Positions 240 through 22,333 of a stretch of DNA of 22,557 nucleotides are shown here, piece by piece (position 1 is the stretch's first letter; every line of letters starts with the position of its first letter). This DNA is from Pseudomonadota bacterium. Its GTDB lineage: Bacteria; Bdellovibrionota; Bdellovibrionia; Bdellovibrionales; SG-bin7. Both the position numbers and the translations under genes were made by a program. The stretch covers positions 1 through 22,557 of the forward strand of contig JAWXAY010000058.1 of NCBI GenBank assembly GCA_034439715.1. The letters run 5' to 3'. A model generated the notes under the pieces. It was not told where the DNA came from, searched no databases, and worked only from the letters and a program-made list of their open reading frames with translations.

Positions 240-271
240 AACTAGCATCAGTTTTGCAATTCTGAATTTTG

Positions 272-3200
272 ATGAATTTCTTAAATTATTACCTACGTTT
301 GATTTTAGTCTTTACGATGGTCTATTCGGGTCCTGGTTACGCCTATGGCCAAAATGCTAAACCGTCCCAACTCTCGCAAGTCGTTGTCAGCGCGCCAGGC
401 GCCGAACTGAGTTTGAATTACAGCCCAAAACTAAAAAAGACTGCTGAGCTCAACGATCAAACGATTAAGTTTTCACAGAAGCTTTTTGAAAAGTTAAAAA
501 TAAACATTCAAAAAGGAAATGTAACCAAAGAGGTTATAGCAGACATAAATATCGCCAAAGCTACTGCACAGGAACTTCAAATCTGGAAGGCCGGAAACCT
601 CTATGCTGGCGGAGGAGCACACCCTTACCGCGCAACAACAGCAAGACTGCCACTTGAAGTAATGCTTTTTTATTCGGCTATATTTTTTAATACCTATATT
701 TCAGGAGTCTTTTCTAGCTGGAGTTCGAGTTATGAAATGGACCCCGCCGCATTCCATACGTTTATGAAAATGCTTCAGGACCCGATAGGCATATTAAGTT
801 TTTATAGTTTTATGATGACCAGCACCGCAATTGGACAACGTGGACACAATATGGTCGGACGCTTGGTAAAGTCATCAACTGAATATTTTAAAGAGTTAAA
901 TAAAGACATTGCGATTAAGGCTTTTGCCGGTGCGAACAAAGATTTTGCTAAAATGCCAGACTACCGATTACCTGAAAATCTCGCCAAAACTAAAGCGGTG
1001 CGTGGACGTGTCAGTTACATCTTAAGAACAATTGGCCCTGTCGGCATGGCATTTGGTATGACAACCAGTCATTTCTTTGATCAAATTCTTCACGATGAGG
1101 ATTTGAAAAAGTGCAACTCAACTTGGCTAAAGGCATTTTCTAGCGAAATCCCCGTTTCGCCCCAGTGGAAAGAGCATTGCGACGTGGCCTACGTTAAATG
1201 GGTAAATTCGGGAACTATTTTTCGCTTGTTGCCTGATCTCGGAGCCATGTTGACTTCAATGACTATTTCACATCTTTTGGTAGGCGGAGTATCAAGTTAC
1301 CTCAGCACTCATCTAGCGAATAAGAACAGCGTTAAGTGGATATTTAAGGGATTGCAGTTAGGGTTCACATTTACACCAATGGGTAAAGTTATAAATGTCA
1401 CTGTCGGAAAGGCGCTGTTTTCTATTTCAAACTTTATGGTGTTTTTGGCTATTCAAGACCATATCGCTGCACCTGTTTTTAACGAAATCTTCAAAGAAGA
1501 TATTGATAAACACATTATATATGCCCAATTTGATAAACTTTTACAGGGCGTAGATGAGCTTAAAGATAAAAATTGGAACGAAAAAAAAGAAGTGTGTAAG
1601 TCAGAAAATGAGCTCTGGTGTCTGTTGAGCTTTGCGAAGCAAAAACTTTGGGATTCAACTACATTTTCGGATAATCTGGTGAGGTTGAACCAAGTTATGA
1701 GCCAACACCGAGCCCAACAATTGGCAGCTGCTTCTCAGGCCAATCAAAGTTGGGTTGATTTTACTCATGAATACATAGTCAGCTATCAGTCAGCCTATCA
1801 AGCTTACAAACAGTTTATCGTTCAAGATGGTAGTGGCGATGTTGATCCCTTTCAACTTCGCGAATATTTACGTGGAGTCCATATTCGAAAATTTGGAAAA
1901 GCTTTTTTTACACGTGATGATTATATAAATGAAGAACTAGGTTTAACTCTAGATCAGTATTTGGAGTCGAAAAGTGTCGATATGCCCTTAGCCAAGCGAA
2001 AGGGCTATTTGCGAACTGAGAGATTCCTAACTATATCTGATGCCGCACAAAAGATTACACCATGGTTAAAAGACCCCTATCACGGCCTTACCCAAACAAT
2101 AACCGCAATTCAAAAACAATTTACTTTTGCGGATGAGCGATACGAAATATTAAGCTTAATTAGCGGTCCAGAAAAAACAGAGTATTTAAAGCTGTCAGAC
2201 AGGAACAGAAAAATCTGGGAGTTTAATAAAAGAAGTCGAGAGGCAGCAATCGGTATTATTATATTAGACCGTGCCCTCATTCAGTTAATGGAAGAACAGG
2301 GCTATACCGACCTTGAGCAAGTACCCATAGAAAACATCTTGGTGCAACTCAAGATTTTTGTCGGCAACTTTTATCCTGAAGGTGACGTCGGTGAAATGCA
2401 GGTATTAGAATTGGCCGTTAACAGCGATATTATGGATCCCAAAAATCTAGAAATTTTGCCAAAGAAATTGGATAGTGTAAGAACACCAAGGCATATTGAC
2501 TATCTTATTGCATCTATGGCGTGCGGACCGATAGCTGAAAAAAATAATCACTTTAATCTTTCGCAACACCTAAACGAAAACATTTCTGTGGGAGAAGCCT
2601 CGGACATCATTAAGGCAAATAGCGAATTGGTTGCTAAAGCGTGGGGAGGAATTTTGCAGTTCTTGCCGCCGCGAATTGTAACAAATCCCACAGACCAAAC
2701 AGTTTGTAATCAAGGATTTTTTAGTCGCGATCTATATTCGGGACCGATTTCAACTACAGGCGCTATGTCAGCAGTTAGCCCAGTCCCCAAAACCTACAAT
2801 AATATTTTTGAGTATATTCGTGGTGACATCAAGCCCTCAGTCTTAGGCGTGGGCGCAGATAATAAAATGAATTTTGACACTTGGTGGGAGCAGAACACAG
2901 GTAAACTTACGCGTTCTGTATTCACTTACCTAAGAGCCCGTTATCGCAAAATTCTGACCCAGCATTTTTATCCCGCGATTGTCACTGGGGAGCAAGATAT
3001 TCGCGATGATTTTGGTTATAAATATTCAGAATCAAAAAAAATTAATGATAAGAACTTTAAAGCTAAAAAGTTTTATACGCAGCCATTGTCTCGAGGTGTT
3101 TTAAGTTCCATCGAGCAAGAGGCCGAATTTTACATAGATTTTCTCTTATATCTATACATGAGTGGAATCTCTGGCGGAAAGCAAAATGAATTGGTCTCCT

Positions 3201-3643
3201 TAAAAAACTCTCTAAAAAATCCTACGGAGTTTGAAAATTTTTGGAACTCACTTCATGGTGCGGAGCCTGAACTTGATGATAAAAAGAAAAAGAAGCTTGA
3301 AGAATTAAAAACATTTTTTACTGAAACTCTAGGCATGTTTAAAAAATCTCATTTAAAAATTCGAAAAATTGGCCGAGGGCCCAATGACCTCAAACTTGTA
3401 AGGACAAAGTTGAAGGAACTTGAGGATTCACAAAAGATTCTCCTTAATCAAATTAAGGGAATAGGCGTGATTTATTTTGGCGAGAAGTTTTCTAACGATC
3501 AATTGGAGTTGCCATTAACTAAACTAGGCACACGTGAGCATTATGTGGAGTTGGCTCTTAAACGCCTAAGGACTCTGGCTAATGAAACGGGCCTCTATGG
3601 CGGCATGGCAGGCAATTTAGCCGAGAGCTTTTTTGGTGATTAG
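272..3643 (+). CDS. Large hypothetical exported/membrane-associated protein (about 1123 aa)
   Basis: Uninterrupted ORF (TTG 269 / ATG 272). Signal-peptide-like N-terminus (RLILVFTMVYSGPGYAYG), several hydrophobic Gly/Met-rich segments within aa ~128-400, and a Lys/Glu/Leu-rich helical C-terminus. No family recognised. Confidence 0.8.
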   Translation: MNFLNYYLRLILVFTMVYSGPGYAYGQNAKPSQLSQVVVSAPGAELSLNYSPKLKKTAELNDQTIKFSQKLFEKLKINIQKGNVTKEVIADINIAKATAQELQIWKAGNLYAGGGAHPYRATTARLPLEVMLFYSAIFFNTYISGVFSSWSSSYEMDPAAFHTFMKMLQDPIGILSFYSFMMTSTAIGQRGHNMVGRLVKSSTEYFKELNKDIAIKAFAGANKDFAKMPDYRLPENLAKTKAVRGRVSYILRTIGPVGMAFGMTTSHFFDQILHDEDLKKCNSTWLKAFSSEIPVSPQWKEHCDVAYVKWVNSGTIFRLLPDLGAMLTSMTISHLLVGGVSSYLSTHLANKNSVKWIFKGLQLGFTFTPMGKVINVTVGKALFSISNFMVFLAIQDHIAAPVFNEIFKEDIDKHIIYAQFDKLLQGVDELKDKNWNEKKEVCKSENELWCLLSFAKQKLWDSTTFSDNLVRLNQVMSQHRAQQLAAASQANQSWVDFTHEYIVSYQSAYQAYKQFIVQDGSGDVDPFQLREYLRGVHIRKFGKAFFTRDDYINEELGLTLDQYLESKSVDMPLAKRKGYLRTERFLTISDAAQKITPWLKDPYHGLTQTITAIQKQFTFADERYEILSLISGPEKTEYLKLSDRNRKIWEFNKRSREAAIGIIILDRALIQLMEEQGYTDLEQVPIENILVQLKIFVGNFYPEGDVGEMQVLELAVNSDIMDPKNLEILPKKLDSVRTPRHIDYLIASMACGPIAEKNNHFNLSQHLNENISVGEASDIIKANSELVAKAWGGILQFLPPRIVTNPTDQTVCNQGFFSRDLYSGPISTTGAMSAVSPVPKTYNNIFEYIRGDIKPSVLGVGADNKMNFDTWWEQNTGKLTRSVFTYLRARYRKILTQHFYPAIVTGEQDIRDDFGYKYSESKKINDKNFKAKKFYTQPLSRGVLSSIEQEAEFYIDFLLYLYMSGISGGKQNELVSLKNSLKNPTEFENFWNSLHGAEPELDDKKKKKLEELKTFFTETLGMFKKSHLKIRKIGRGPNDLKLVRTKLKELEDSQKILLNQIKGIGVIYFGEKFSNDQLELPLTKLGTREHYVELALKRLRTLANETGLYGGMAGNLAESFFGD

Positions 3644-5709: not shown

Positions 5710-5735
5710 CATAATAACTGCAAGTGGAGGTGGAT

Positions 5736-6803
5736 ATGTCTAAGTCTAAATCGGTTGGAATATTGTTACTTTTGGTTTTTGGGCTCACTGTGGCCTTCAA
5801 CAGTTCGGCGGCAACAAGCGTTCCGACAATAAAGAAAACTAGCAAAATAGTTCCTCTAAAAAAGTCATTAAATAAGCTGACAAATAAGTCCACTAAAAAG
5901 CCCACAGTAAAGACTGCGAAAAAATCAGACGTTAGAAGGGCCTCAATAAAAGTAGCAAAAACTAATTCTATCTCTAACTCTGAAAATATTCTTACGACTC
6001 GAGCAGCCACCCAAGGGTCTGTCTCTGAAAAAGCAAAAAAATGGACTTTCGGTACTCATGTTGATTATAGACCCGAAACTTCAAAAGCATTTAATTCTGG
6101 AATTGGCTATGGCTTAGATTATTTTTATCGACCTAGCTCTTACCATACGTTTCGTATTTTTAAAGGCGCCGATCAGATAATCCTGCCCTCAGAAACTCCC
6201 GAGAGATTCGTCGTTGGAAATACCAAGTTATTCTATTATTATAAATTCACTAGCCCTGATACTAAGGACCACGCGGTCGCCATGCGTTTTCTTGTGACTG
6301 TGGGCGACTCCCAGCAAGCCCGCACAGATGGCTTAAATTCTGTTCAGAGTGCCCGCCTGGAGTTTAATAAAATGATTGGTGGATTTACACTAGGTCTTAA
6401 CCCGTATGTTTCTTACTATTGGGCGGATTATGCCACTAATGCCAAAAATGAACCTTTGCCACTTTTTGGTTTGGGTCATACTTTGCTTCTTGCTTACTCA
6501 TTTACTGATAAGTGGAGCATTGGCACTGATGTCACGACTGGGTTTAGTTTTTTGCAGCCTGAAGAAATTAGAAAAGCAAAAGTGCTAGCTGAAGCCCAAG
6601 GTCAAGACGCTAGTGCTGTCGTCGATACCACTAAATCAAGCTTTAATGCTGGTGTTGAGCTTGGCTATAAGGCGACAAAAGCATTTTCGATGCGCTTAGG
6701 TTATGCACAAGAGGACGCGCTTGTGAGCGAAGGCAAATACGGCGTTGAATTCTTAGATAAAAAATCAACTAGGGGTTACGTCGGTTTCGACTACAGTTTT
6801 TGA
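5736..6803 (+). CDS. Hypothetical outer-membrane beta-barrel protein with a Lys-rich N-terminal linker
   Basis: GGAGG RBS at 5726-5730 favours ATG 5736. Signal peptide, about 65 aa K/S/T-rich low-complexity segment, alternating amphipathic aromatic-rich strands (WTFGTHVDY, FTLGLNPYVSY, WSIGTDVTTGF, FNAGVELGY), and a C-terminal beta-signal GYVGFDYSF. Confidence 0.75.
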   Translation: MSKSKSVGILLLLVFGLTVAFNSSAATSVPTIKKTSKIVPLKKSLNKLTNKSTKKPTVKTAKKSDVRRASIKVAKTNSISNSENILTTRAATQGSVSEKAKKWTFGTHVDYRPETSKAFNSGIGYGLDYFYRPSSYHTFRIFKGADQIILPSETPERFVVGNTKLFYYYKFTSPDTKDHAVAMRFLVTVGDSQQARTDGLNSVQSARLEFNKMIGGFTLGLNPYVSYYWADYATNAKNEPLPLFGLGHTLLLAYSFTDKWSIGTDVTTGFSFLQPEEIRKAKVLAEAQGQDASAVVDTTKSSFNAGVELGYKATKAFSMRLGYAQEDALVSEGKYGVEFLDKKSTRGYVGFDYSF

Positions 6804-9523: not shown

Positions 9524-10941
9524 ATGAGTGTTGAAACAACTAAAACCCAATTTAGCCCCTCTGACTTTACGGCCGCCTCAAGAAAAGACAGTTTGCAACA
9601 GCTCAGTCGACCCTCACTTTCTTATTGGGAAGATGTGTGGATCAGATTTAAGAAAAATCGGCAAGCAACAGTGTCACTTTGTGTTGTGGTGTTTTTACTC
9701 GCCTTTTCTTTTTTGGGTCCCTTTATTTGGATAGTAGAACCTTCTCAACAAAATTTAAATCGCATATCTGAAGGTCCTTCTTTGGGTAGAATGGCACTGG
9801 TAGTTGATGAAAGCTCCGATGAGCAGACGATAGAAGACCCCAGTTTTTTGTATCTACCAGAGCATGATAATCCAAATATAGGTGCGCCCGAGAAATTTGA
9901 GATTATCGGAACTCCGTCAACTTTGGGAGTCGAAATACACTGGACACCCGTCGAAGGAGCTGCAGGATACTTAATTTACCGTAGCGAAAAAGTGAGCGAG
10001 AATTTAGAGGCCATCTCAGATAATGGAGTAGTGATAAAAGAAATTACCTCAGGCAATGAGATCGGCTTTGTCGACCGTTTCGATATTCAACCGAGAAACT
10101 ATTGGTACGCAATTGTTGCCAAATCTATCGATACAACTTCGACACAATATAAAATCGTAAGCGCCAAGGTAGTAAGGGCAATTGGTATTGAGGCAGCGCA
10201 AACTGAGAGTAAAAATCTGGTTAAAGTTGGAGAAATGATAAAGATGTCTGTCCACCCCCTAGGCACTGACTATTTGGGGAGAGATATGCTGGCGCGCCTT
10301 ATGTATGGTGGTCGCATTTCGCTTATCATCGGAATTTTTGTGCCGTTGATTTATATTTTATTTGGTACTCTTTATGGCGGACTTTCTGGGTATCTAGTGG
10401 ACGCGTAGACAACATAATGATGCGGATTTGTGATATTGTGGCAACAATGCCTTACCTTTTAGTTGTCATTATTTTATACATATTGTTGGGTGGGCACGTT
10501 GGCGCGAGATCGGTTTTTGCTCTGATGGTTGCGATGACGTCGACATTTTGGCCGGGAACCGCTCGATTGATTCGTGGGCAGGTTTTGCAGATTCGCGAAG
10601 AAGGCTATGTACAGGCATCTAAACTTTTAGGCTCGAGTACGATATTTATTATTTTACGTCATATGATTCCGAACACCATGGGGCTAATTCTCGTTAACCT
10701 AACCTTTGCTGTGCCAACATCTATTTTTAGCGAAGCCTTTTTGGCCTTTATTGGTATGGGTGTTAAGCCACCTTTTGCCTCATGGGGCACTCTGTGTGAA
10801 GAAGGTGTGAAGACTATGTCATCATCTCCACATGAACTTTTTTGGCCCGCAGTTTTTATTTGTGTTACTACATTGGCGTTTAATTTATTAGGAGATGGGT
10901 TGCGAGATGCCACTGACTCTAAAATGAGGTCACGCGAATGA
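9524..10941 (+). pseudogene. oppC: Oligopeptide ABC transporter permease OppC, split by a single-base frameshift near 10397 (real lesion or sequencing error); contains an FN3-like insertion
   Basis: ORF 9524-10408 has the OppC N-terminal motif SYWEDVWIRFKKNR and HPLGTDYLGRD. ORF 10417-10941 has ARLIRGQVLQIREEGYVQASKLLG, SWG and FNLLGDGLRDA. Adding one G (CTA GGT GGA CGC GTA GAC AAC ATA ATG ATG CGG) restores the usual GYLGGRVDNIMMR and a 472-aa protein. Confidence 0.88.
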
Positions 10942-14597: not shown

Positions 14598-15371
14598 TTG
14601 GATTTAAAAGGTAAAAGGGCACTAGTTTGTGGAGCTTCTCAGGGCATTGGCGAGGCCATATGTTTTGAATTATCAAGTCGGGGATGCGAAGTCTTCGCCC
14701 TGGCTCGAAACAAAGAGAAGTTAGAAAAGCTAACTACAAATTTACCTAACAAAGGCCATAAAATAATAGCTATCGATGTGGCCCATCGAGAGAAATTAAA
14801 AGTTGAAGTTTCAAATCTGCTAAGAGACGTTGGACCCATTGAAATCTTAATTTGTAATACGGGTGGACCCAAGGCAGGTGCTATTACAGATGCGAGCGAG
14901 GAGCAATTCTTAGAAGCTTTTCAAAATCATGTTTTAGTAAATTCTCTATTAGCAAATCTATTATTGCCAGGTATGAAAGCGGCCCGCTACGGCAGAATAA
15001 TCAATATTATTTCTACTTCGGTAAAAATTCCGATTCCCAACTTAGGAGTGTCAAATACGATTCGTGCGGCTGTGGGCAGTTGGGCCAAAACTCTGTCATT
15101 AGAAGTTGGTGAGTTTGGCGTCACTGTAAATAATGTTTTACCAGGTTTTACTAAGACACCAAGACTTGAAGCATTAATTAAAGTCGCGGCTACTCGTGAG
15201 CAAAAATCCGAGGCACAGATTATAGAGAACTGGAAGGCCACCATCCCGCTACGACGTTTTGCCGAGGCCAACGAGATTGCCAATGTGGTGGGATTTCTCG
15301 CGAGTGCAAAAGCTTCTTATGTTAGTGGTGTGAGTGTCCCGGTGGATGGCGGACGGACAGGTTCACTATGA
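14598..15371 (+). CDS. SDR-family oxidoreductase with an atypical active site
   Basis: Rossmann motif CGASQGIG, NTGGP, VTVNNVLPG and VPVDGG. The catalytic YxxxK position reads SNTIR. TTG start with GGAG upstream. Confidence 0.9.
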   Translation: MDLKGKRALVCGASQGIGEAICFELSSRGCEVFALARNKEKLEKLTTNLPNKGHKIIAIDVAHREKLKVEVSNLLRDVGPIEILICNTGGPKAGAITDASEEQFLEAFQNHVLVNSLLANLLLPGMKAARYGRIINIISTSVKIPIPNLGVSNTIRAAVGSWAKTLSLEVGEFGVTVNNVLPGFTKTPRLEALIKVAATREQKSEAQIIENWKATIPLRRFAEANEIANVVGFLASAKASYVSGVSVPVDGGRTGSL

Positions 15372-16543
15372 AGTTCGATATTTTTTTCTCTATATGTCAA
15401 ACAGAAGTCGACGGCTATATGCCGACCGAAAAAATCATGTTTCAGAATTTTTTTGATCAAGTGAGGCTTGCCGATGAGCTCGGATTTGGTACGGCGTGGG
15501 TGGCTGAAACCCACTTATCTTGCCAAATACAAAAACAAAATCCAGGCGCAGTCATTCCTCATTTTAAGGGTGAAATTGGTCTTAACACAGACATCTTGCA
15601 GTTGGCACATTTGGTTTTTGCTCAAACTAAAAGTATTAATATTGGTTCAGCCATTCGAAACATTCTTTGTAATGGCGGCCCCATTGCTCATGCTGAGGCC
15701 GTAAAAATGTTTTTGAGCCTGCATGACCTGTCCCCCCATCGCGAGCGTCTGCTCGAATTGGGATTTGCCTCTGGGCGGTTTCCATTTTCAAATACTCCTT
15801 ATGGTATTAGGCCTCGAAACGCCAATGAAGAGGCGATGTGGCCCTTAATTAAAGGAAAAATATTTCATCAGGCTAGCGAAATTTTCTTAAGGTTTTTACG
15901 CGGTGATGTTTTTTCAAGCCGCGATATAAAGCCAATAATCATTAAACGTGAGGATGCCAGCCAAGTTGAAATTGAATCGTTTTGGAAGTTTGACAAAGTG
16001 GGTGTGATTCCATTGGAAGCACCGCTTGAGAGCTTGCGTTTGATTACGGGCTCTCACGATCCCGCGGCGCAAATATTAGCTAATGAATTTATGCCCGTGG
16101 GGACATTTAATTTATCAATTACGCCCTCCTCTGAAATAGAGACTACCCATGAGCGAATGAAAAAATACTTTCATAAATCCGGTGGACCCTGGAAGCGCTC
16201 GTATATGCCACGTACCGTACTAGTTTTTGTGGATGCCTCTGGCGATTCTGCTGAAGAACAAAATCAACGCGCTCGCGAGCAAGGAAATAAGGTCCTGAGC
16301 AATTATTGGAAGGCGATAGAAGGAACTCTTGATCCAAAAAAAATCGAAAACGCAGTCGACAATGCGCTTTCTGGTAGTCCCACCCAAATTGTTCAACAAA
16401 TTAGAGAGCGCTTTCATCCTGATGACCGTGTGATGTTGTGGTTTGATTTTAATAACCATGATAATGAGGCTGTCAAAAAAAGTATGAGCATTTTTATGAA
16501 AGAGGTAGTGCCTCAGTTAAAAAATTATAGCGGAGGTTTGTGA
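15368..16543 (+). CDS. Luciferase-like (LLM class) flavin-dependent monooxygenase
   Basis: MKFDIF start, QVRLADELGFGTAWVAETH, TKSINIGSAI, LELGFASG, GSPTQIVQQI and SMSIFMKEVVPQL are typical of the LLM TIM barrel; ATGA overlap with the SDR. Confidence 0.88.
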   Translation: MKFDIFFSICQTEVDGYMPTEKIMFQNFFDQVRLADELGFGTAWVAETHLSCQIQKQNPGAVIPHFKGEIGLNTDILQLAHLVFAQTKSINIGSAIRNILCNGGPIAHAEAVKMFLSLHDLSPHRERLLELGFASGRFPFSNTPYGIRPRNANEEAMWPLIKGKIFHQASEIFLRFLRGDVFSSRDIKPIIIKREDASQVEIESFWKFDKVGVIPLEAPLESLRLITGSHDPAAQILANEFMPVGTFNLSITPSSEIETTHERMKKYFHKSGGPWKRSYMPRTVLVFVDASGDSAEEQNQRAREQGNKVLSNYWKAIEGTLDPKKIENAVDNALSGSPTQIVQQIRERFHPDDRVMLWFDFNNHDNEAVKKSMSIFMKEVVPQLKNYSGGL

Positions 16544-16545
16544 CC

Positions 16546-17991
16546 ATGGAACTCATACAAAATTTTATAAATGGTGAATTTGCTTCACCTCAAGACGGCA
16601 AGTACCTCGACGGCTTTAATCCGGCTACGGGTAAGGTCTACTCGAGAGTTCCCGATTCTCGAGACGTCGATGTGGCAATGGCAGTAGTAGCGGCTAAGAA
16701 AGCCTTTCCTGCGTGGTCTAAAAAAACTGCCGAAGAGCGCGCGGAGTATCTTTATAAGATTGCCGATTTAATTGATCGTGATCGCGAAAAATTGGCCTTG
16801 GCTGAGAGTATCGATCAAGGTAAGCCCCTTTCTCTAGCCCGGGAGCTCGATATTCCAAGGGCCTCGAAAAATTTTAGATTTTTTGCGGGAGCCATACTCC
16901 ACACACAGGAAATGTCTACTACTCAGGGGGATACGTCTTTAAACTATGTTTTAAGGCAACCTGTAGGTGTCGCGGGCCTTATTCCTCCATGGAATCTTCC
17001 TCTCTATCTACTCACCTGGAAAATTGCGCCCGCGCTCGCCGCAGGAAATACAGTCGTTTGTAAACCTTCGGAGTTTACCTCAATGACCGCCTTTTTGCTT
17101 TGCTCATTGATCAAGGAGGCCGGCCTACCCTCTGGTGTTTGCAATATTGTTTTTGGCACTGGCGAAAAAGCGGGAGCAGTATTGGTAGATCATCCTGCCG
17201 TACCACTTATTTCATTTACGGGTGGCACCGCCACCGGCGAAAAAATTTATCGGGCTAGTGCTGCCAATTTTAAAAAAATTAGTCTTGAGCTCGGCGGAAA
17301 GAATCCAAATATTATTTATGACGATGCCGATCTTAGCAAAGCAGTGCCGGGGACCATTCGCTCAAGCTTTCTCAATCAGGGTGAGATTTGTGTTTGCGGA
17401 TCACGTATTTTTGTACAAGAAGGCATTTACGAAAAATTTCTTAGTGAGTTTAAGGCTGAAACTGAAAAACTAATTGTGGGAAATCCACTTGATGAAAAGA
17501 CTTTTATGGGTCCCCTTGTGAGTTCTTCACATTTAGACAAAGTCATGAGCAGCATCGAACAAGCTCGCAACGAAGGTGCTAAAATTATTTTTGGAGGAGA
17601 TCGGCCAAAAAATTTAAGCAATGAATTTAAAGACGGCTATTTTTTAAATCCGACAATTATCACGGAACTAGACCGCTGCAGTGAAATCATGCAGCGAGAA
17701 ATTTTTGGTCCAGTGGTGACGGTAACACCTTTTAAATATATGAAAGACGTGGTTGAGTGGGCGAACAATGTGCCCTACGGGCTCACCGCAACTGTTTGGA
17801 CTACAAATCTAGATAGAGCTCACAAAACTGCTGCAAAGTTAGAAGTCGGTACTGTATGGGTCAATACCTGGCTTAAGCGTGACTTGAGATTACCTTTTGG
17901 TGGCATGAAGGCTTCCGGCATTGGCCGAGAAGGCGGCGAATTTTCTTTAGAGTTTTTTACAGAGGCAAAAACAGTAACAATTGGATTGTAA
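16546..17991 (+). CDS. amnC: 2-aminomuconate 6-semialdehyde dehydrogenase (ALDH8/HMSDH family)
   Basis: ALDH motifs PWNLP, FTGGT, LELGGKNP, NQGEICVCGSR and EIFGPV. Family-diagnostic substrate arginines in DIPR and WLKRDLRLPFGG. GGAGG at 16532-36 favours ATG 16546 over GTG 16540. Adjacent to the aminophenol dioxygenase. Confidence 0.85.
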   Translation: MELIQNFINGEFASPQDGKYLDGFNPATGKVYSRVPDSRDVDVAMAVVAAKKAFPAWSKKTAEERAEYLYKIADLIDRDREKLALAESIDQGKPLSLARELDIPRASKNFRFFAGAILHTQEMSTTQGDTSLNYVLRQPVGVAGLIPPWNLPLYLLTWKIAPALAAGNTVVCKPSEFTSMTAFLLCSLIKEAGLPSGVCNIVFGTGEKAGAVLVDHPAVPLISFTGGTATGEKIYRASAANFKKISLELGGKNPNIIYDDADLSKAVPGTIRSSFLNQGEICVCGSRIFVQEGIYEKFLSEFKAETEKLIVGNPLDEKTFMGPLVSSSHLDKVMSSIEQARNEGAKIIFGGDRPKNLSNEFKDGYFLNPTIITELDRCSEIMQREIFGPVVTVTPFKYMKDVVEWANNVPYGLTATVWTTNLDRAHKTAAKLEVGTVWVNTWLKRDLRLPFGGMKASGIGREGGEFSLEFFTEAKTVTIGL

Positions 17992-18005
17992 TTAAGGAGT
18001 AAGCG

Positions 18006-18884
18006 ATGATTGTAGCTGGAGCTTTAGCACCGCACCCACCCCATCTTGTGTATGGCGATAATCCCAAACAAAACGAGCCGCGCTCTGAAGGTGGCTGGGA
18101 AGTTTTGCGCTGGGGTTATGAGAGGCTGCAGAAAAATCTAGATAAATTGGATTACGATGTCTTAGTTGTATTGTCGCCCCACTGGCGCACACAAGTTGGT
18201 ACGCATTTCGTTGGCGTACCCCATCTTAAAGGTAAGTCAGTAGATCCCATTTTTCCTAATTTATTTCGCTTTAATTACGATATGAATTTCGATGTTAAGT
18301 TGAGCGAGGCCATTTCTAAAAAAGCAGAAAAAATGGGTTTAGTCACTGATATGATGCGAAATCCCGATTATCGAGTCGACTACGGCACGATTGTATCGTG
18401 TCACATGACAAATCCTAAATGGAACAAGCCCATCGTAAGTATTTCTAGTAACGGGGCCGCACAGTATTTTAATTTAGAAGTCATGAATTCATTGTTTACT
18501 AAACTAGGTATTGCCACGAGAGAGGCCATTAACGAGTCAGGAAAACGCGCAGTTTTACTAGCCAGCAACTCGCTTTCTCACAGACACTTTACCTTAGAAC
18601 CAGAAGTTCCCGAAGATATGAGTAAGGAACACATTACCAGTCACGCCCTTTATCTATGGGATATGCGCATGCTGGAACTTATGAAAAAAGGCAAGACGCG
18701 CGAGATGACAGAAATCTTGCCTGACTTTACCGAGCAAACCATGGGAGAGACTGATAGTGGCGCTCTGACTTGGTTAATGTCTGCCCTCGATTACCCTGAA
18801 TATCCCGCTGAAGTCCATGCCTACGGTACCGTGATTGGCACCGGAAATGCGATTGTGGAGTGGAGTAAGGGAGTAGAGTCATGA
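18006..18884 (+). CDS. amnB: 2-aminophenol 1,6-dioxygenase, catalytic beta subunit (LigB-type extradiol dioxygenase)
   Basis: Very close to AmnB/CnbCb motifs: LAPHPPHLVYGDNPKQNEPRSEGGWEVLRW, SPHW, GKSVDPIFPN, RVDYG, LLASNSLSH, PEDMSKE and YGTVIGTGNA. Fe ligands His/His/Glu (PH, SPHW, GETDSG) are retained. Confidence 0.93.
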   Translation: MIVAGALAPHPPHLVYGDNPKQNEPRSEGGWEVLRWGYERLQKNLDKLDYDVLVVLSPHWRTQVGTHFVGVPHLKGKSVDPIFPNLFRFNYDMNFDVKLSEAISKKAEKMGLVTDMMRNPDYRVDYGTIVSCHMTNPKWNKPIVSISSNGAAQYFNLEVMNSLFTKLGIATREAINESGKRAVLLASNSLSHRHFTLEPEVPEDMSKEHITSHALYLWDMRMLELMKKGKTREMTEILPDFTEQTMGETDSGALTWLMSALDYPEYPAEVHAYGTVIGTGNAIVEWSKGVES

Positions 18885-19882
18885 AGAATACAAAAAAGAA
18901 CACAAAAATGAAATCTAAAAAAACGTTCAGAAGAGTGTTAAAATCAAAAAGCAAAAAGTCTAGCCTCTCTCCCCTTATTAAGGGCTTTATTGTACCGGGT
19001 TTGCCACATATCCTGCTGGCGCCGGAAAAAAATCCTGGTTGGCAAAAAATGCGAAATGCTTTTGATGAAGTCAAAAATGAAATAGCTGCGAGTGGAGCAG
19101 AAATCCTGGTGATCTACAGTACTTATTGGTCAAGTATTTTGGGTCATCAAATTCAGGCTGAGCCTGAACCAGAGTGGGTCCACGTGGACGATCAATTTTA
19201 CGCCTTGGGCTCGATTCCCTATAAATTGAGAATGGATTCTAAATTTGCGGAATTACTAAAAGAAAAATGTTTGAGCCGAGGTCTACAGGCGCGCACGACG
19301 GCCTATAAGGGTTTTCCGATAGATACGGGTTCGGTGGTGGCGCTAAAATTATTGAATCCTGATAATAAAATTCCGGCGGTGATAATTTCTAGTAATATTT
19401 ATAGCGACCGCGCCGAGAGCATTGTATTGGGTAAGGCTGCGCGCGATGCAATTGAGGCAAGTGGTAAGAAAGCGATCTGTCTGGTTATCACGTCACTCTC
19501 GAATCGCATGCACACAACACATGTGCCTTCTGAAAAGGATAAAATTCATTCTCTCAAGGATCATGAATGGAATTTAAAATTTTTGGAGTATTTGCAAGCG
19601 GGAAGACTCGAAGATGCTTCGCAACTTTCTCGTCAGTTTCATAGAGAGGCCAGGGTTCAGAAAGTAGTAAATTTTAAACCGTTTTGGTGGCTAGCAGGAG
19701 TCATGGGACAAAACAATCTCTACGGTGGAAAACTTTATGAATATCAGCCTATTTGTGGCACAGGCAACGCGCTCGTCGGACTGACTCCTTCACTTCGTTC
19801 AGCAAGAGATCTTGAGTTTGATGAAGACGATCCACAAAACTATAAGGGCGAGCGAAACGTACTGGGCGAAAAATATGATTGA
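18881..19882 (+). CDS. amnA: 2-aminophenol 1,6-dioxygenase, non-catalytic alpha subunit, with terminal extensions
   Basis: FIVPGLP, IYSTYW, HVDDQFY, YKGFPIDTG, SSNIY and FKPFWWLAG match AmnA/CnbCa. Lacks the Fe-binding SPHW His. ATGA overlap with amnB. Confidence 0.88.
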   Translation: MKNTKKNTKMKSKKTFRRVLKSKSKKSSLSPLIKGFIVPGLPHILLAPEKNPGWQKMRNAFDEVKNEIAASGAEILVIYSTYWSSILGHQIQAEPEPEWVHVDDQFYALGSIPYKLRMDSKFAELLKEKCLSRGLQARTTAYKGFPIDTGSVVALKLLNPDNKIPAVIISSNIYSDRAESIVLGKAARDAIEASGKKAICLVITSLSNRMHTTHVPSEKDKIHSLKDHEWNLKFLEYLQAGRLEDASQLSRQFHREARVQKVVNFKPFWWLAGVMGQNNLYGGKLYEYQPICGTGNALVGLTPSLRSARDLEFDEDDPQNYKGERNVLGEKYD

Positions 19883-20981
19883 GCACGATAACTATCCGAA
19901 GAGTCCTTTTGGCGACAGCGAGTCGGGGATTCCCACGGGTCGTCAAGTCGAGTGGGAGCCACTAATAGATTATCGACGAAATGGTGTGAGTGAAAATACT
20001 ATTCACGGAGCGATCTCGTGGTTTAGTGGAAGCAAAAATATTCATTCATTTGGCGGGAACGTACTTTGTTATGGCCGCAGTATGATGAAACCATTTTATA
20101 TTAAGGTTTTTGCGAATGAACTCAATTCGAATACCAATTGGAAGCAAAAGGCAATAAGTGTCGCTAGCCACAACGGCACGGCTCAACACGTCGATGCGGC
20201 GCAAAGTTTGTTAAAGGAAAGCGAGTGGGGGCTGATGTTGACCCCACTGGACACTCCACTTGTGCAGTTTGGCCGGCAGGTACGTCGGCCACGTCGCTGG
20301 TTTAATAATTCTTCGGGTCATCATGCCGCGATACTTCTTGGCTGCCGACTCCGGGGCTTCAATCGCGCTGGCTACACTTTGCCGAGTCATCCTGTATTTC
20401 ACGAATATATGAAAATCGTAAAGACCTACATTGGGAAGGATTGGATGCCTCTAAAAATAGCTCGGGATGGTGACGGGCTGCCCACTGTGGCAATGACTGT
20501 TAATGAGCTTGCGAAATGCTATGCTGAGCTCGCTAAGAATCGCAATGAGGATTGGATTTGGGAATCGATGTGCCGGGAGCCCGACCTTGTGGGAGGATAT
20601 AATCGGCTCGACACTACCATTATCAAGTCTTGCAACAATAAGGTTATAGCCAAAGAAGGCGCTGATGGTCTCTTGGGTTTGGCGATTGATCACACAGATT
20701 ATCCAGAAGGCTTGGGCGTCGTCATAAAAATTGCACACGGTTGGAATCCACAAGCGACTTGGTATATTGCGCGTGGGATTTTAGGATCTTTGGGTTTTGA
20801 TCTCAGAAATCCTTATCCCCTCAAGCGCCAAAAGGCCTTTTTAGTTCCAGGAATTGTGCCGCCAACCCTGATAGATAAATTAGAGAAAATTCCGACTTGG
20901 GATGAATGGGATCCTGATCACGATAGATGGTATTTTGATCCTAGTGAACATAAAAATATTTTAGGTGGTGAGGTTTTATGA
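19875..20981 (+). CDS. Class 3 (Rhizobium AnsA / Asparaginase_II family) asparaginase-like amidohydrolase with an altered metal site
   Basis: RSMMKP, ASHNG, NSSGHH (canonical NCSGKH), HPV, DGDGLP (canonical DGCxxP), AKEGADG and GVVIKIAHG. ATG 19875 overlaps the amnA stop and is preferred to TTG 19812. Confidence 0.82.
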   Translation: MIEHDNYPKSPFGDSESGIPTGRQVEWEPLIDYRRNGVSENTIHGAISWFSGSKNIHSFGGNVLCYGRSMMKPFYIKVFANELNSNTNWKQKAISVASHNGTAQHVDAAQSLLKESEWGLMLTPLDTPLVQFGRQVRRPRRWFNNSSGHHAAILLGCRLRGFNRAGYTLPSHPVFHEYMKIVKTYIGKDWMPLKIARDGDGLPTVAMTVNELAKCYAELAKNRNEDWIWESMCREPDLVGGYNRLDTTIIKSCNNKVIAKEGADGLLGLAIDHTDYPEGLGVVIKIAHGWNPQATWYIARGILGSLGFDLRNPYPLKRQKAFLVPGIVPPTLIDKLEKIPTWDEWDPDHDRWYFDPSEHKNILGGEVL

Positions 20982-21391
20982 GCGAAAAAATAATTGTCAA
21001 TAGTGCCCCAGAGCCAGTTGGAGCCTATCCTCATGCCCGCAAGGTCGGAAATCTTTTATTTTTATCGGGCGTGGGGCCACGAAAGAAGGGAAGTAAAGAA
21101 ATTCCGGGAGTGACTCTCGACGTAAATGGTAACATCAAATCTTATGACGTCGAAGTCCAAACCAAAGCAGTGATTGAGAACGTAAAAAATATTTTAGAAG
21201 CTTCGGATAGTTCGCTAGACAAAGTGGTCGATGTGATGGTTTTTTTAACTAATATGAAAAACGACTTTAAAAAATTTAACGAAGTTTATGCAAAAACATT
21301 TGCAAAAATTGGTGCAACCCGCACCACGGTCGAAGTGGGTGCATTACCTACTCCCATTGCGGTTGAATTTAAAGTGATAGCAACGATTTAA
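20978..21391 (+). CDS. amnD: RidA/YjgF-family deaminase, probably 2-aminomuconate deaminase
   Basis: APEPVGAYPHA, LFLSG, the extra GVGPR..IPGVTLD loop seen in aminomuconate deaminases, FNEVY, and catalytic Arg in TRTTVEV; operon context; ATGA overlap. Confidence 0.8.
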   Translation: MSEKIIVNSAPEPVGAYPHARKVGNLLFLSGVGPRKKGSKEIPGVTLDVNGNIKSYDVEVQTKAVIENVKNILEASDSSLDKVVDVMVFLTNMKNDFKKFNEVYAKTFAKIGATRTTVEVGALPTPIAVEFKVIATI

Positions 21392-22202
21392 TCCACGGTG
21401 GTTCGTCACCTAGTTCTTTTTCGGGATTACGATTCATTTCTTCTAATTGGTTCCACTCTTCTTGGAGATATTCTTGTTGGTCAGCCGTTGCGTCGTCATC
21501 GTCTTCGGGTGTGCTTTTGCGACAGGCCTGATCGGGAGTGTAACTGTTAGTACTACAAATACTAACACGAGCGTCATGACTATTTTTTACCATCGTCATA
21601 ATCCAATCGCGTAAGGGTGTTGGCGATATGGGATTTATGGCGGCATCGAGTACGAAGGCCACTCCTTCTACAGAAACTACGGGTGCGACATGATAAACCC
21701 ATCCCACTCGTCCACTGGGACTATTGGGAGTTTTAACTCTTAAGTTTCCAAAAATAAAAACCTTGTAGGGCGCCTCTAGTTTGGTGTCTTCGAGTTTATG
21801 AACCGCCATAGCCGCGCGGGCATAGCAACCATCATCGGGGTAGAGCCACGAAATCCTTCTGGCAAAATCTGCTTTATCCTCTGTAAATAAAAAGCGGGAA
21901 TCGCGCATATATTCAAACGCCGAATTCATAACACCGACACTTGGCCACTGAGGTAAAATGGAAGTGTCGAGTTCATCTATATCTATCGCCATTTCTTGCG
22001 CGTTTTTGTCGTATAGTTTGGGGCTATGCCCATGAACTTTGATATAGGCTTTGCGCAGGCGTTTCATGCCGTCGTCACCGCTTTCGCCTGGCAGTCGGAT
22101 GGCTGAACTATAGGAATGTCGTTCGGCAAAGGTGGTGGGCCGGGCGTTAGCGAGCAGAGAAATCAGCGATATTAGAAGAGTAAAAAAACTTAAACTTTTC
22201 AT
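21369..22202 (-). CDS. Secreted protein-glutamine glutaminase (protein glutaminase) family enzyme
   Basis: Cys-His-Asp triad motifs WLYPDDGCYARA, GWVYHVAP and FVLD, with KVFIFGNL. AGAGGT RBS and signal peptide MKSLSFFTLLISLISLLANA favour ATG at 22202. Confidence 0.85.
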   Translation of the reverse strand: MKSLSFFTLLISLISLLANARPTTFAERHSYSSAIRLPGESGDDGMKRLRKAYIKVHGHSPKLYDKNAQEMAIDIDELDTSILPQWPSVGVMNSAFEYMRDSRFLFTEDKADFARRISWLYPDDGCYARAAMAVHKLEDTKLEAPYKVFIFGNLRVKTPNSPSGRVGWVYHVAPVVSVEGVAFVLDAAINPISPTPLRDWIMTMVKNSHDARVSICSTNSYTPDQACRKSTPEDDDDATADQQEYLQEEWNQLEEMNRNPEKELGDEPPWIKSLLSL

Positions 22203-22333
22203 AGAGTAACCTCTAGGTGATTTGAAGTAATATTCTAGATGGTAAAGGGGAATCAAAGGAGGCGTCGGCTCAAAAACTAACCAATTGTCTAGTGATTGAT
22301 GCCTTGAGTTATTAACATCGAAATTGATAAATC

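Follow-up and report, generated by a model that had tools for sequence, protein, structure and literature searches.

A conserved operon encoding a luciferase-like monooxygenase and an asparaginase-fold hydrolase may provide a kynureninase-free route for tryptophan catabolism through 2-aminophenol

Canonical bacterial tryptophan catabolism of the Burkholderia cenocepacia type, as cited in a preprint, proceeds through tryptophan 2,3-dioxygenase (TDO), kynurenine formamidase (KynB), KMO, kynureninase (KynU), HAD, ACMSD, AMSDH and AMD (bioRxiv 10.64898/2026.06.05.730449). Gene clusters for the meta-cleavage of 2-aminophenol include amn from Pseudomonas sp. AP-3, cnb from Comamonas and the ARO locus. 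In the ARO microcompartment, 2-aminophenol is described as coming from an unknown upper pathway, and that paper makes no mention of kynurenine, tryptophan, luciferase or asparaginase (PMC10470539). Here we analyzed a stretch of 22,557 nucleotides (the window; contig JAWXAY010000058.1 of assembly GCA_034439715.1) from a member of the Bdellovibrionales. It carries a seven-gene operon for an SDR (short-chain dehydrogenase/reductase), a luciferase-like monooxygenase (LLM), an aldehyde dehydrogenase (ALDH), AmnB, AmnA, an asparaginase-like hydrolase (hereafter the hydrolase) and RidA. We propose, with a probability of roughly 0.55, that this operon encodes the middle and lower part of a kynureninase-free tryptophan pathway that follows a Baeyer-Villiger route.

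The proposed route has the same entry (TDO and KynB) and exit (ALDH, Rid protein and SDR) as the canonical kynurenine/3-hydroxyanthranilate pathway, but it would lose aspartate (C4) rather than alanine and CO2 and would have no quinolinate branch. A role in NAD supply was rejected, since the host genome (G000, 95.7% complete) has nadC but no HAD match (nadA and nadB were not among the searched genes) and the proposed route would make no quinolinate. AmnB, AmnA, ALDH and the Rid deaminase are closely related to those of amn, cnb and ARO. Unlike those systems, the window cluster lacks nitroreductase, mutase and shell genes and contains the LLM, the class 3 asparaginase-like hydrolase and the SDR instead. 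No 4-oxalocrotonate decarboxylase or hydratase was matched in the host (tblastn, three queries; the aldolase was not among the searched genes), and a lower pathway of the amn/nbz/cnb type through these two enzymes was not found there.

The operon is real and conserved. A hydrolase search of a genome collection matched 345 of 358 candidate stretches, of which we kept the best 80 (63-84% identity). These come from Bdellovibrionota, Acidobacteriota, Planctomycetota, Krumholzibacteriia and Poseidoniales archaea. All seven genes are present in 43 of these best 80 of 345, which bears out the conserved co-occurrence of LLM, altered asparaginase, amnBA, amnC, ridA and SDR anticipated by a sequence-only reading of the window; many of the incomplete loci are ended by contig edges or divided into two blocks. 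A second scan, run independently with the LLM as its anchor, yielded 80 metagenome loci. Of these, 43 are at least 10 kb long, among them L167, which is the window's own sequence. The hydrolase occurs in 36 of the 43 longer loci, amnB in 19 and kynB in 10, and kynU, kmo, HAD and ACMSD are found in none of the 80. Nine-gene operons of the order tdo-SDR-LLM-hydrolase-ALDH-amnB-amnA-rid-kynB occur in L058, L067, L068 and L071, and tdo adjoins the LLM block in L107, L114, L115, L116 and L117. A cultured organism, Sulfidibacter corallicola M133, is among the carriers (L009 and L114). A search for further conserved neighbors, for example a flavin reductase, returned only shadow open reading frames (ORFs) and lineage-specific genes.

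In the host, TDO and KynB are encoded close together on a contig (C63) other than that of the operon. The same genome gave no match to KynU, to HAD (one search had silent controls, and tblastn confirmed the result), or to KMO or ACMSD by tblastn. We then considered 54 carrier genomes, comprising 50 of the 80 loci and four genomes of the phylum sample described below; the 50 were picked to include loci without an adjacent LLM and loci outside Bdellovibrionota, and their completeness is not given. LLM was found in 53 of the 54, TDO in 52 and KynB in 48. KynU, KMO and ACMSD were found in none and HAD in one, as a weak match; control genomes were matched in 3 of 3 cases for all four enzymes. Host and carriers thus agree with the earlier expectation that such genomes would have TDO and the formamidase, which are adjacent to the cluster in some loci, and would lack kynU, kmo, nbaC (HAD) and nbaD (ACMSD). 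All six carriers without KynB are Poseidoniales. In three Poseidoniales loci (L060, L061 and L064) the SDR gene is neighbored by one for a BD-FAE-type alpha/beta hydrolase, a candidate formamidase possibly of the AFMID type. A tie between the cluster and tryptophan/kynurenine is very probable.

The relation to the canonical module is one of exchange. TDO was found in 106 of 161 evenly sampled genomes of the phylum, KynU in 38 of these 106 and LLM in 24; every KynU genome and every LLM genome of the sample has TDO, and 44 of the 106 have neither KynU nor LLM. KynU and LLM occur together in no genome, against 8.6 expected among the 106 TDO genomes, with related genomes not being independent. This exclusion repeats inside family f10 (28 genomes; KynU 13, LLM 10, both 0). 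Also in f10, LLM in L134 and L139 fills the slot taken by HAD-ACMSD-kynU in L096 and L097, with the same flanking genes; L133 likewise has LLM in that slot. Canonical clusters (L098-L104) contain KMO, KynU, HAD and ACMSD plus an ALDH, a Rid protein and an SDR. The window proteins are 47-51% (ALDH), 58-63% (RidA) and 36-52% (SDR) identical to their counterparts in canonical clusters, the 52% being with the SDR of L102; the RidA values compare with 40% for the host's other Rid protein. In the SDR tree, both cluster types form one group against the host paralogues (support 99/98, with long paralogue branches), and one canonical-cluster SDR is nested among the new-type SDRs. The Rid proteins of both cluster types interleave in a quick tree without bootstrap.

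Because ALDH, RidA and SDR are common to both cluster types, four genes are swapped for four genes: LLM, the asparaginase-like hydrolase and AmnBA replace KMO, KynU, HAD and ACMSD between kynurenine and 2-aminomuconate semialdehyde. If C10 is to become C6 with neither a pyridoxal phosphate (PLP) enzyme nor a decarboxylase, a C4 amino acid is left over, and the asparaginase fold points to aspartate as the probable leaving group. Since the SDR sits in canonical kynurenine clusters too, it is not special to the kynureninase-free route.

In the proposed pathway, TDO and KynB, encoded elsewhere in the host, would make L-kynurenine. LLM, with O2 and FMNH2 from a separate reductase, would add flavin peroxide to the aryl ketone, and the electron-rich 2-aminophenyl group would migrate in a reaction of the Baeyer-Villiger/Dakin type. 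The product would be the beta-aspartyl ester of 2-aminophenol, possibly shifting to the anilide. The class 3 asparaginase-fold hydrolase would form a beta-aspartyl-serine intermediate and then release L-aspartate and 2-aminophenol. Ring opening by AmnBA would follow, with ALDH giving 2-aminomuconate, RidA giving 2-oxo-3-hexenedioate, and SDR probably reducing the latter to 2-oxoadipate, which would enter the glutaryl-CoA route. In a variant, N-formylkynurenine could be the LLM substrate with the scheme otherwise the same. The genomic data establish which genes are present, their families, the tie to tdo/kynB and the swap with the canonical module; the LLM and hydrolase reactions (aryl migration, O-to-N shift and aspartate release) and the SDR reduction are our inference. 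The splitting of kynurenine into aspartate and free 2-aminophenol, by whatever chemistry, seems reasonably likely.

Genomes without a ring-cleaving enzyme bear on the order of these steps. Among the 24 LLM genomes of the phylum sample, the hydrolase was matched in all 24 and AmnB in 18. Of the six that lack AmnB, five (G097, G037, G051, G065 and G104; loci L108 and L129-L132) were checked for LigB proteins of any kind and gave no match. These genomes are 2.2-2.8 Mb, and G097 is a single contig that is 99% complete. Each of the five has its LLM gene next to the hydrolase gene and carries TDO, and KynB is seen in 4/5. Since the pair is kept without a LigB dioxygenase, it is a unit independent of ring cleavage. 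This supports the earlier placement of LLM and hydrolase before ring cleavage and favors free 2-aminophenol as an intermediate. The LigB-free genomes are predicted to release 2-aminophenol.

The hydrolase, called asparaginase-like in the sequence-only reading, can be refined to the Rhizobium class 3 (Ser-Lys) type, as opposed to class 1 or 2. Its model matches the Rhizobium etli L-asparaginases ReAV and ReAIV with Z 34.8 and a root-mean-square deviation (rmsd) of 2.4 over about 300 residues, at 22-23% identity. The fold, both Ser-Lys tandems and Arg47 are shared, and the window hydrolase keeps the equivalents of Arg47, Ser48, Lys51, Ser80 and Lys263 (mapped through the ReAIV alignment). ReAV's Ser-Lys tandems are reported as essential (PMC12292245). 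An Arg-Ser-x-x-Lys motif is found in 79/80 hydrolases, the remaining one being truncated, and Ser80 and Lys263 in 80/80. The zinc site differs: Cys135/Lys138/Cys189 of ReAV reads Ser/His/Asp in the window hydrolase, which does not have the class 3 zinc site. Among the 80 sequences the zinc ligand Lys138 is replaced in 80/80 and mostly both Cys are as well, with Cys135 to Ser and Cys189 to Asp in 64/80 each. A kept nucleophile together with a rebuilt metal site would fit a changed substrate. In one Bdellovibrionota group the hydrolase domain is fused to KynB (L096:10214-11815; L129-L145), in LLM-type and KynU/KMO-type genomes alike.

The predicted LLM model (pLDDT 92.6) has the luciferase TIM-barrel fold, and 3033 relatives of the protein were found at E<=1e-10. 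Its nearest folds are luciferases at Z 29-30 (8CBB, Z 30.0, rmsd 2.9, 317 aligned; LuxA, Z 29.7), followed by RslO1 (Z 29.1) and diketocamphane monooxygenase (DKCMO; Z 26.0). RutA, SsuD and F420 enzymes score lower, at Z 21-23. Luciferases and DKCMOs are both placed among the type II Baeyer-Villiger enzymes supplied by distant flavin reductases, from which DKCMOs obtain FMNH2 (PMC6352141), and the modeled proximity of LLM to this group is a lead. LLM would differ from DKCMO, LuxA and RslO1 in acting on an acyclic amino-acid aryl ketone. A eukaryotic protein of 1501 residues (P0125, EukProt ANDGO_01838), presumably from the jakobid Andalucia godoyi given its ANDGO prefix, joins in one chain an LLM, an amidotransferase-like domain of class I, ApbE and a reductase-like tail. 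In this one sequence the LLM part is 42% identical and keeps 47/52 conserved positions, and the tail resembles flavin reductase with a score of 0.87. The fusion thus appears to pair LLM with flavin supply and a different amide-hydrolase fold, with the reductase-like part as a further lead. Neither the 242 loci searched nor G000 gave a match to the amidotransferase-like, ApbE or reductase-like parts.

The ALDH, AmnB, AmnA and RidA assignments are firm at the family level. Among solved structures, ALDH is closest to 2-aminomuconate 6-semialdehyde dehydrogenase (E 3e-134), AmnB to the beta subunit of 2-aminophenol 1,6-dioxygenase (E 1.6e-118) and RidA to the 2-aminomuconate deaminase 6IZH (E 1.7e-22). 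AmnA matches 7TXY_A (E 7.5e-44) as well as 8IHG_B and 3VSG_A (E ~7e-37), so that adjacent beta and alpha LigB-fold genes are both nearest to solved 2-aminophenol dioxygenases. Residues 2-287 of AmnB align without gaps to 8IHG and 3VSG (E ~1e-118) and keep the equivalents of His13, His62, Tyr129, His195 and Glu251. In this numbering we take His13, His62 and Glu251 to be the Fe ligands, with Tyr129 and His195 in addition. The SDR has Ser-Asn-x-x-Arg instead of YxxxK in all patterns listed for 57 matches, with the top seven patterns accounting for 48. It is a candidate 2-oxo-3-hexenedioate reductase giving 2-oxoadipate, and glutaryl-CoA dehydrogenase is encoded in the host. This reduction is treated as a recognized but not settled option in the literature (PMC7842363), and the animal reductase for 2-aminomuconate is given as ASPDH, not an SDR (bioRxiv 10.64898/2026.06.05.730449). 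Some relatives carry decarboxylase/hydratase-type genes, and because several canonical clusters contain the SDR together with a decarboxylase-type gene, its role is the least certain assignment.

Two other schemes would make LLM a kynurenine 3-hydroxylase. AmnBA could open 3-hydroxykynurenine, and the hydrolase could then cleave a C-C bond of the ring-opened product, releasing aspartate in the manner of meta-cleavage product hydrolases. The carbon balance yields aspartate in this case too, LLM was never found with KMO or KynU in the searched genomes (as any replacement would predict), and a subfamily-specific Arg lies beside the AmnB catalytic His. We regard this scheme as quite unlikely: the hydrolase would have no substrate in the five genomes that have an adjacent LLM-hydrolase pair and no LigB protein, and AmnB aligns gapless to 2-aminophenol dioxygenases. 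Enzymes with the same product would also be expected to exchange freely, yet KMO accompanies AmnBA and the hydrolase in 0/54 genomes and KynU is present in 0/24 LLM genomes. Alternatively, the hydrolase could cut the aryl-acyl C-C bond of 3-hydroxykynurenine before ring cleavage, giving 2-aminophenol and aspartate. Gene order and the dioxygenase-free genomes suit this equally well, and it could account for the presence of the hydrolase in KMO genomes, which make 3-hydroxykynurenine. It is still unlikely, as the nearest folds of LLM are carbonyl-attacking luciferase/Baeyer-Villiger enzymes rather than aromatic hydroxylases, and we know of aryl-acyl hydrolysis only for strongly activated phloroglucinols.

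A Baeyer-Villiger reaction with alkyl migration would instead give O-anthraniloyl-serine and then anthranilate and serine, a direct substitute for kynureninase, with 2-aminophenol made by later oxidative decarboxylation. The exclusion with KynU and the dioxygenase-free genomes do resemble an anthranilate-ending route. However, the cluster has no further conserved oxygenase, yet AmnBA is present in 18/24 LLM genomes; the asparaginase fold suits a beta-aspartyl acyl group, and the 2-aminophenyl group should migrate first, which makes this alternative highly improbable. The cluster could also handle another N-acyl-aminophenol or a benzoxazolinone-type compound, with the tdo/kynB link being incidental. 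Host tdo and kynB do lie on a separate contig, TDO is common in the phylum, and the upper pathway to 2-aminophenol of the ARO microcompartment is likewise described as unknown (PMC10470539). Such a substrate is very unlikely in view of the several lineages and gene orders that place tdo and kynB inside the cluster or next to it, the hydrolase-KynB fusion in one family, and the frame genes common to canonical clusters.

Several observations weigh against the aryl-migration route through kynurenine and 2-aminophenol that we prefer. TDO is widespread in the phylum (the 106 of 161 genomes above). The identity of LLM to its solved relatives, DKCMO, LuxA and RslO1 included, is only 14-22%, and a common fold proves no function. 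The surroundings of the cluster contain no conserved flavin reductase gene; PF01613 gave no match in the host, where the one reductase noted is a PF03358 protein encoded away from the operon. ReAV is inactive after loss of either Cys135 or Cys189, as reported in the study that defined its zinc site (PMC11024299), and the activity of the rebuilt site is assumed. An Arg follows the catalytic His in 94/96 AmnB locus matches, where three solved enzymes have Trp or Leu; this could be a sign of a different, carboxylate-bearing substrate. Among genomes with both KynU and KMO but no LLM, 7 carry a more distant hydrolase fused to KynB, so the KynB-fused hydrolase clade is not strictly tied to LLM. We had expected the fusion to be decaying in KynU genomes, which is ruled out by its intact catalytic motifs; both cysteines are kept as well. 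There it could be a leftover that the fusion has preserved, or it could serve another function. Finally, a stand-alone LLM relative (L242:12001-13242, 42.5%) lies on a Streptomyces clavuligerus megaplasmid with no kynurenine genes within 12 kb. It adjoins DUF389, polyprenyl synthase and eCIS-core genes.

The seven ORFs of the operon lie on the + strand at 14598..21391 (Table 1), at the coordinates given before. Successive genes are spaced by -4, +2, +14, -4, -8 and -4 nt, with ATG start codons at 16546 (ALDH) and 19875 (hydrolase). The tight packing described in the sequence-only reading is therefore confirmed, with +14 nt as the largest gap, and its family calls of SDR, LLM, ALDH, amnB, amnA, asparaginase-like and RidA hold in Pfam and among solved relatives. 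Promoter and terminator scans of the operon were at chance level (16 vs 13.0 and 8 vs 7.5), so co-transcription is argued from spacing and conserved order only. A glutaminase-like gene on the minus strand converges on ridA with a 23 nt overlap and closes the 3′ end of the operon. The peptide transporter, Vut_1 and DUF6588 genes upstream in the window are not kept beside the cluster in relatives. A one-base difference near 10397 breaks an oppC-like permease (9524-10941) into two ORFs, and this split probably stems from an error of assembly. L167, from an assembly otherwise identical to the window, has one extra base at this split and one base fewer inside the LLM gene. Two long ORFs of 1124 and 359 aa (269-3643 and 5724-6803) have no Pfam match, and the 359-aa ORF resembles a secreted or outer-membrane protein.

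Table 1. Features of the operon and its 3′ neighbor in the window.
Feature	Coordinates	Strand	Matches and assignment
SDR	14598..15371	+	PF13561; without the YxxxK Tyr; candidate 2-oxo-3-hexenedioate (4-oxalocrotonate) reductase, function inferred
LLM (luciferase-like monooxygenase)	15368..16543	+	PF00296, weak, E 1.3e-11; proposed kynurenine Baeyer-Villiger monooxygenase
ALDH, 2-aminomuconate 6-semialdehyde dehydrogenase (AmnC/NbaE-like)	16546..17991	+	PF00171; top PDB matches all that enzyme
AmnB, 2-aminophenol 1,6-dioxygenase beta (catalytic) subunit	18006..18884	+	LigB PF02900; 8IHG, 3VSG
AmnA, 2-aminophenol 1,6-dioxygenase alpha subunit	18881..19882	+	LigB PF02900; 7TXY_A, 8IHG_B, 3VSG_A
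Class 3 (Rhizobium-type) asparaginase-fold Ser-Lys hydrolase	19875..20981	+	PF06089; proposed beta-aspartyl ester/anilide hydrolase
RidA, Rid-family 2-aminomuconate deaminase	20978..21391	+	PF01042; top PDB match 6IZH
Protein-glutamine glutaminase-like gene	21369-22256	-	PF18626; NF040782 match below cut-off

The cluster is apparently an undescribed, conserved variant of the kynurenine pathway, and its link to that pathway is strong; a full-text literature search, which covered few subscription journals, found no description of the route. On balance we lean towards a branch of tryptophan catabolism that is distinct and widespread, reaching across Bdellovibrionota, Acidobacteriota, Planctomycetota, Marine Group II archaea and perhaps a protist. 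Two undescribed enzymes would underlie it, one a Baeyer-Villiger monooxygenase acting on kynurenine and the other a beta-aspartyl-aminophenol hydrolase that needs no PLP and descends from a class 3 asparaginase. Tryptophan catabolism is taken to run through kynureninase, and the release of aspartate and 2-aminophenol, if true, would add a new branch and two new enzyme activities. The route seems common in predatory, soil and marine protein-degrading microbes, given the 345 matching stretches in the genome collection. It would also supply a natural source of substrate for 2-aminophenol dioxygenases, make carriers without ring cleavage natural producers of 2-aminophenol, and point to the SDR of both cluster types as the bacterial enzyme that takes 2-oxo-3-hexenedioate to 2-oxoadipate. 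The diverged class 3 asparaginase clade and the SDR of canonical clusters thereby each gain a testable function.

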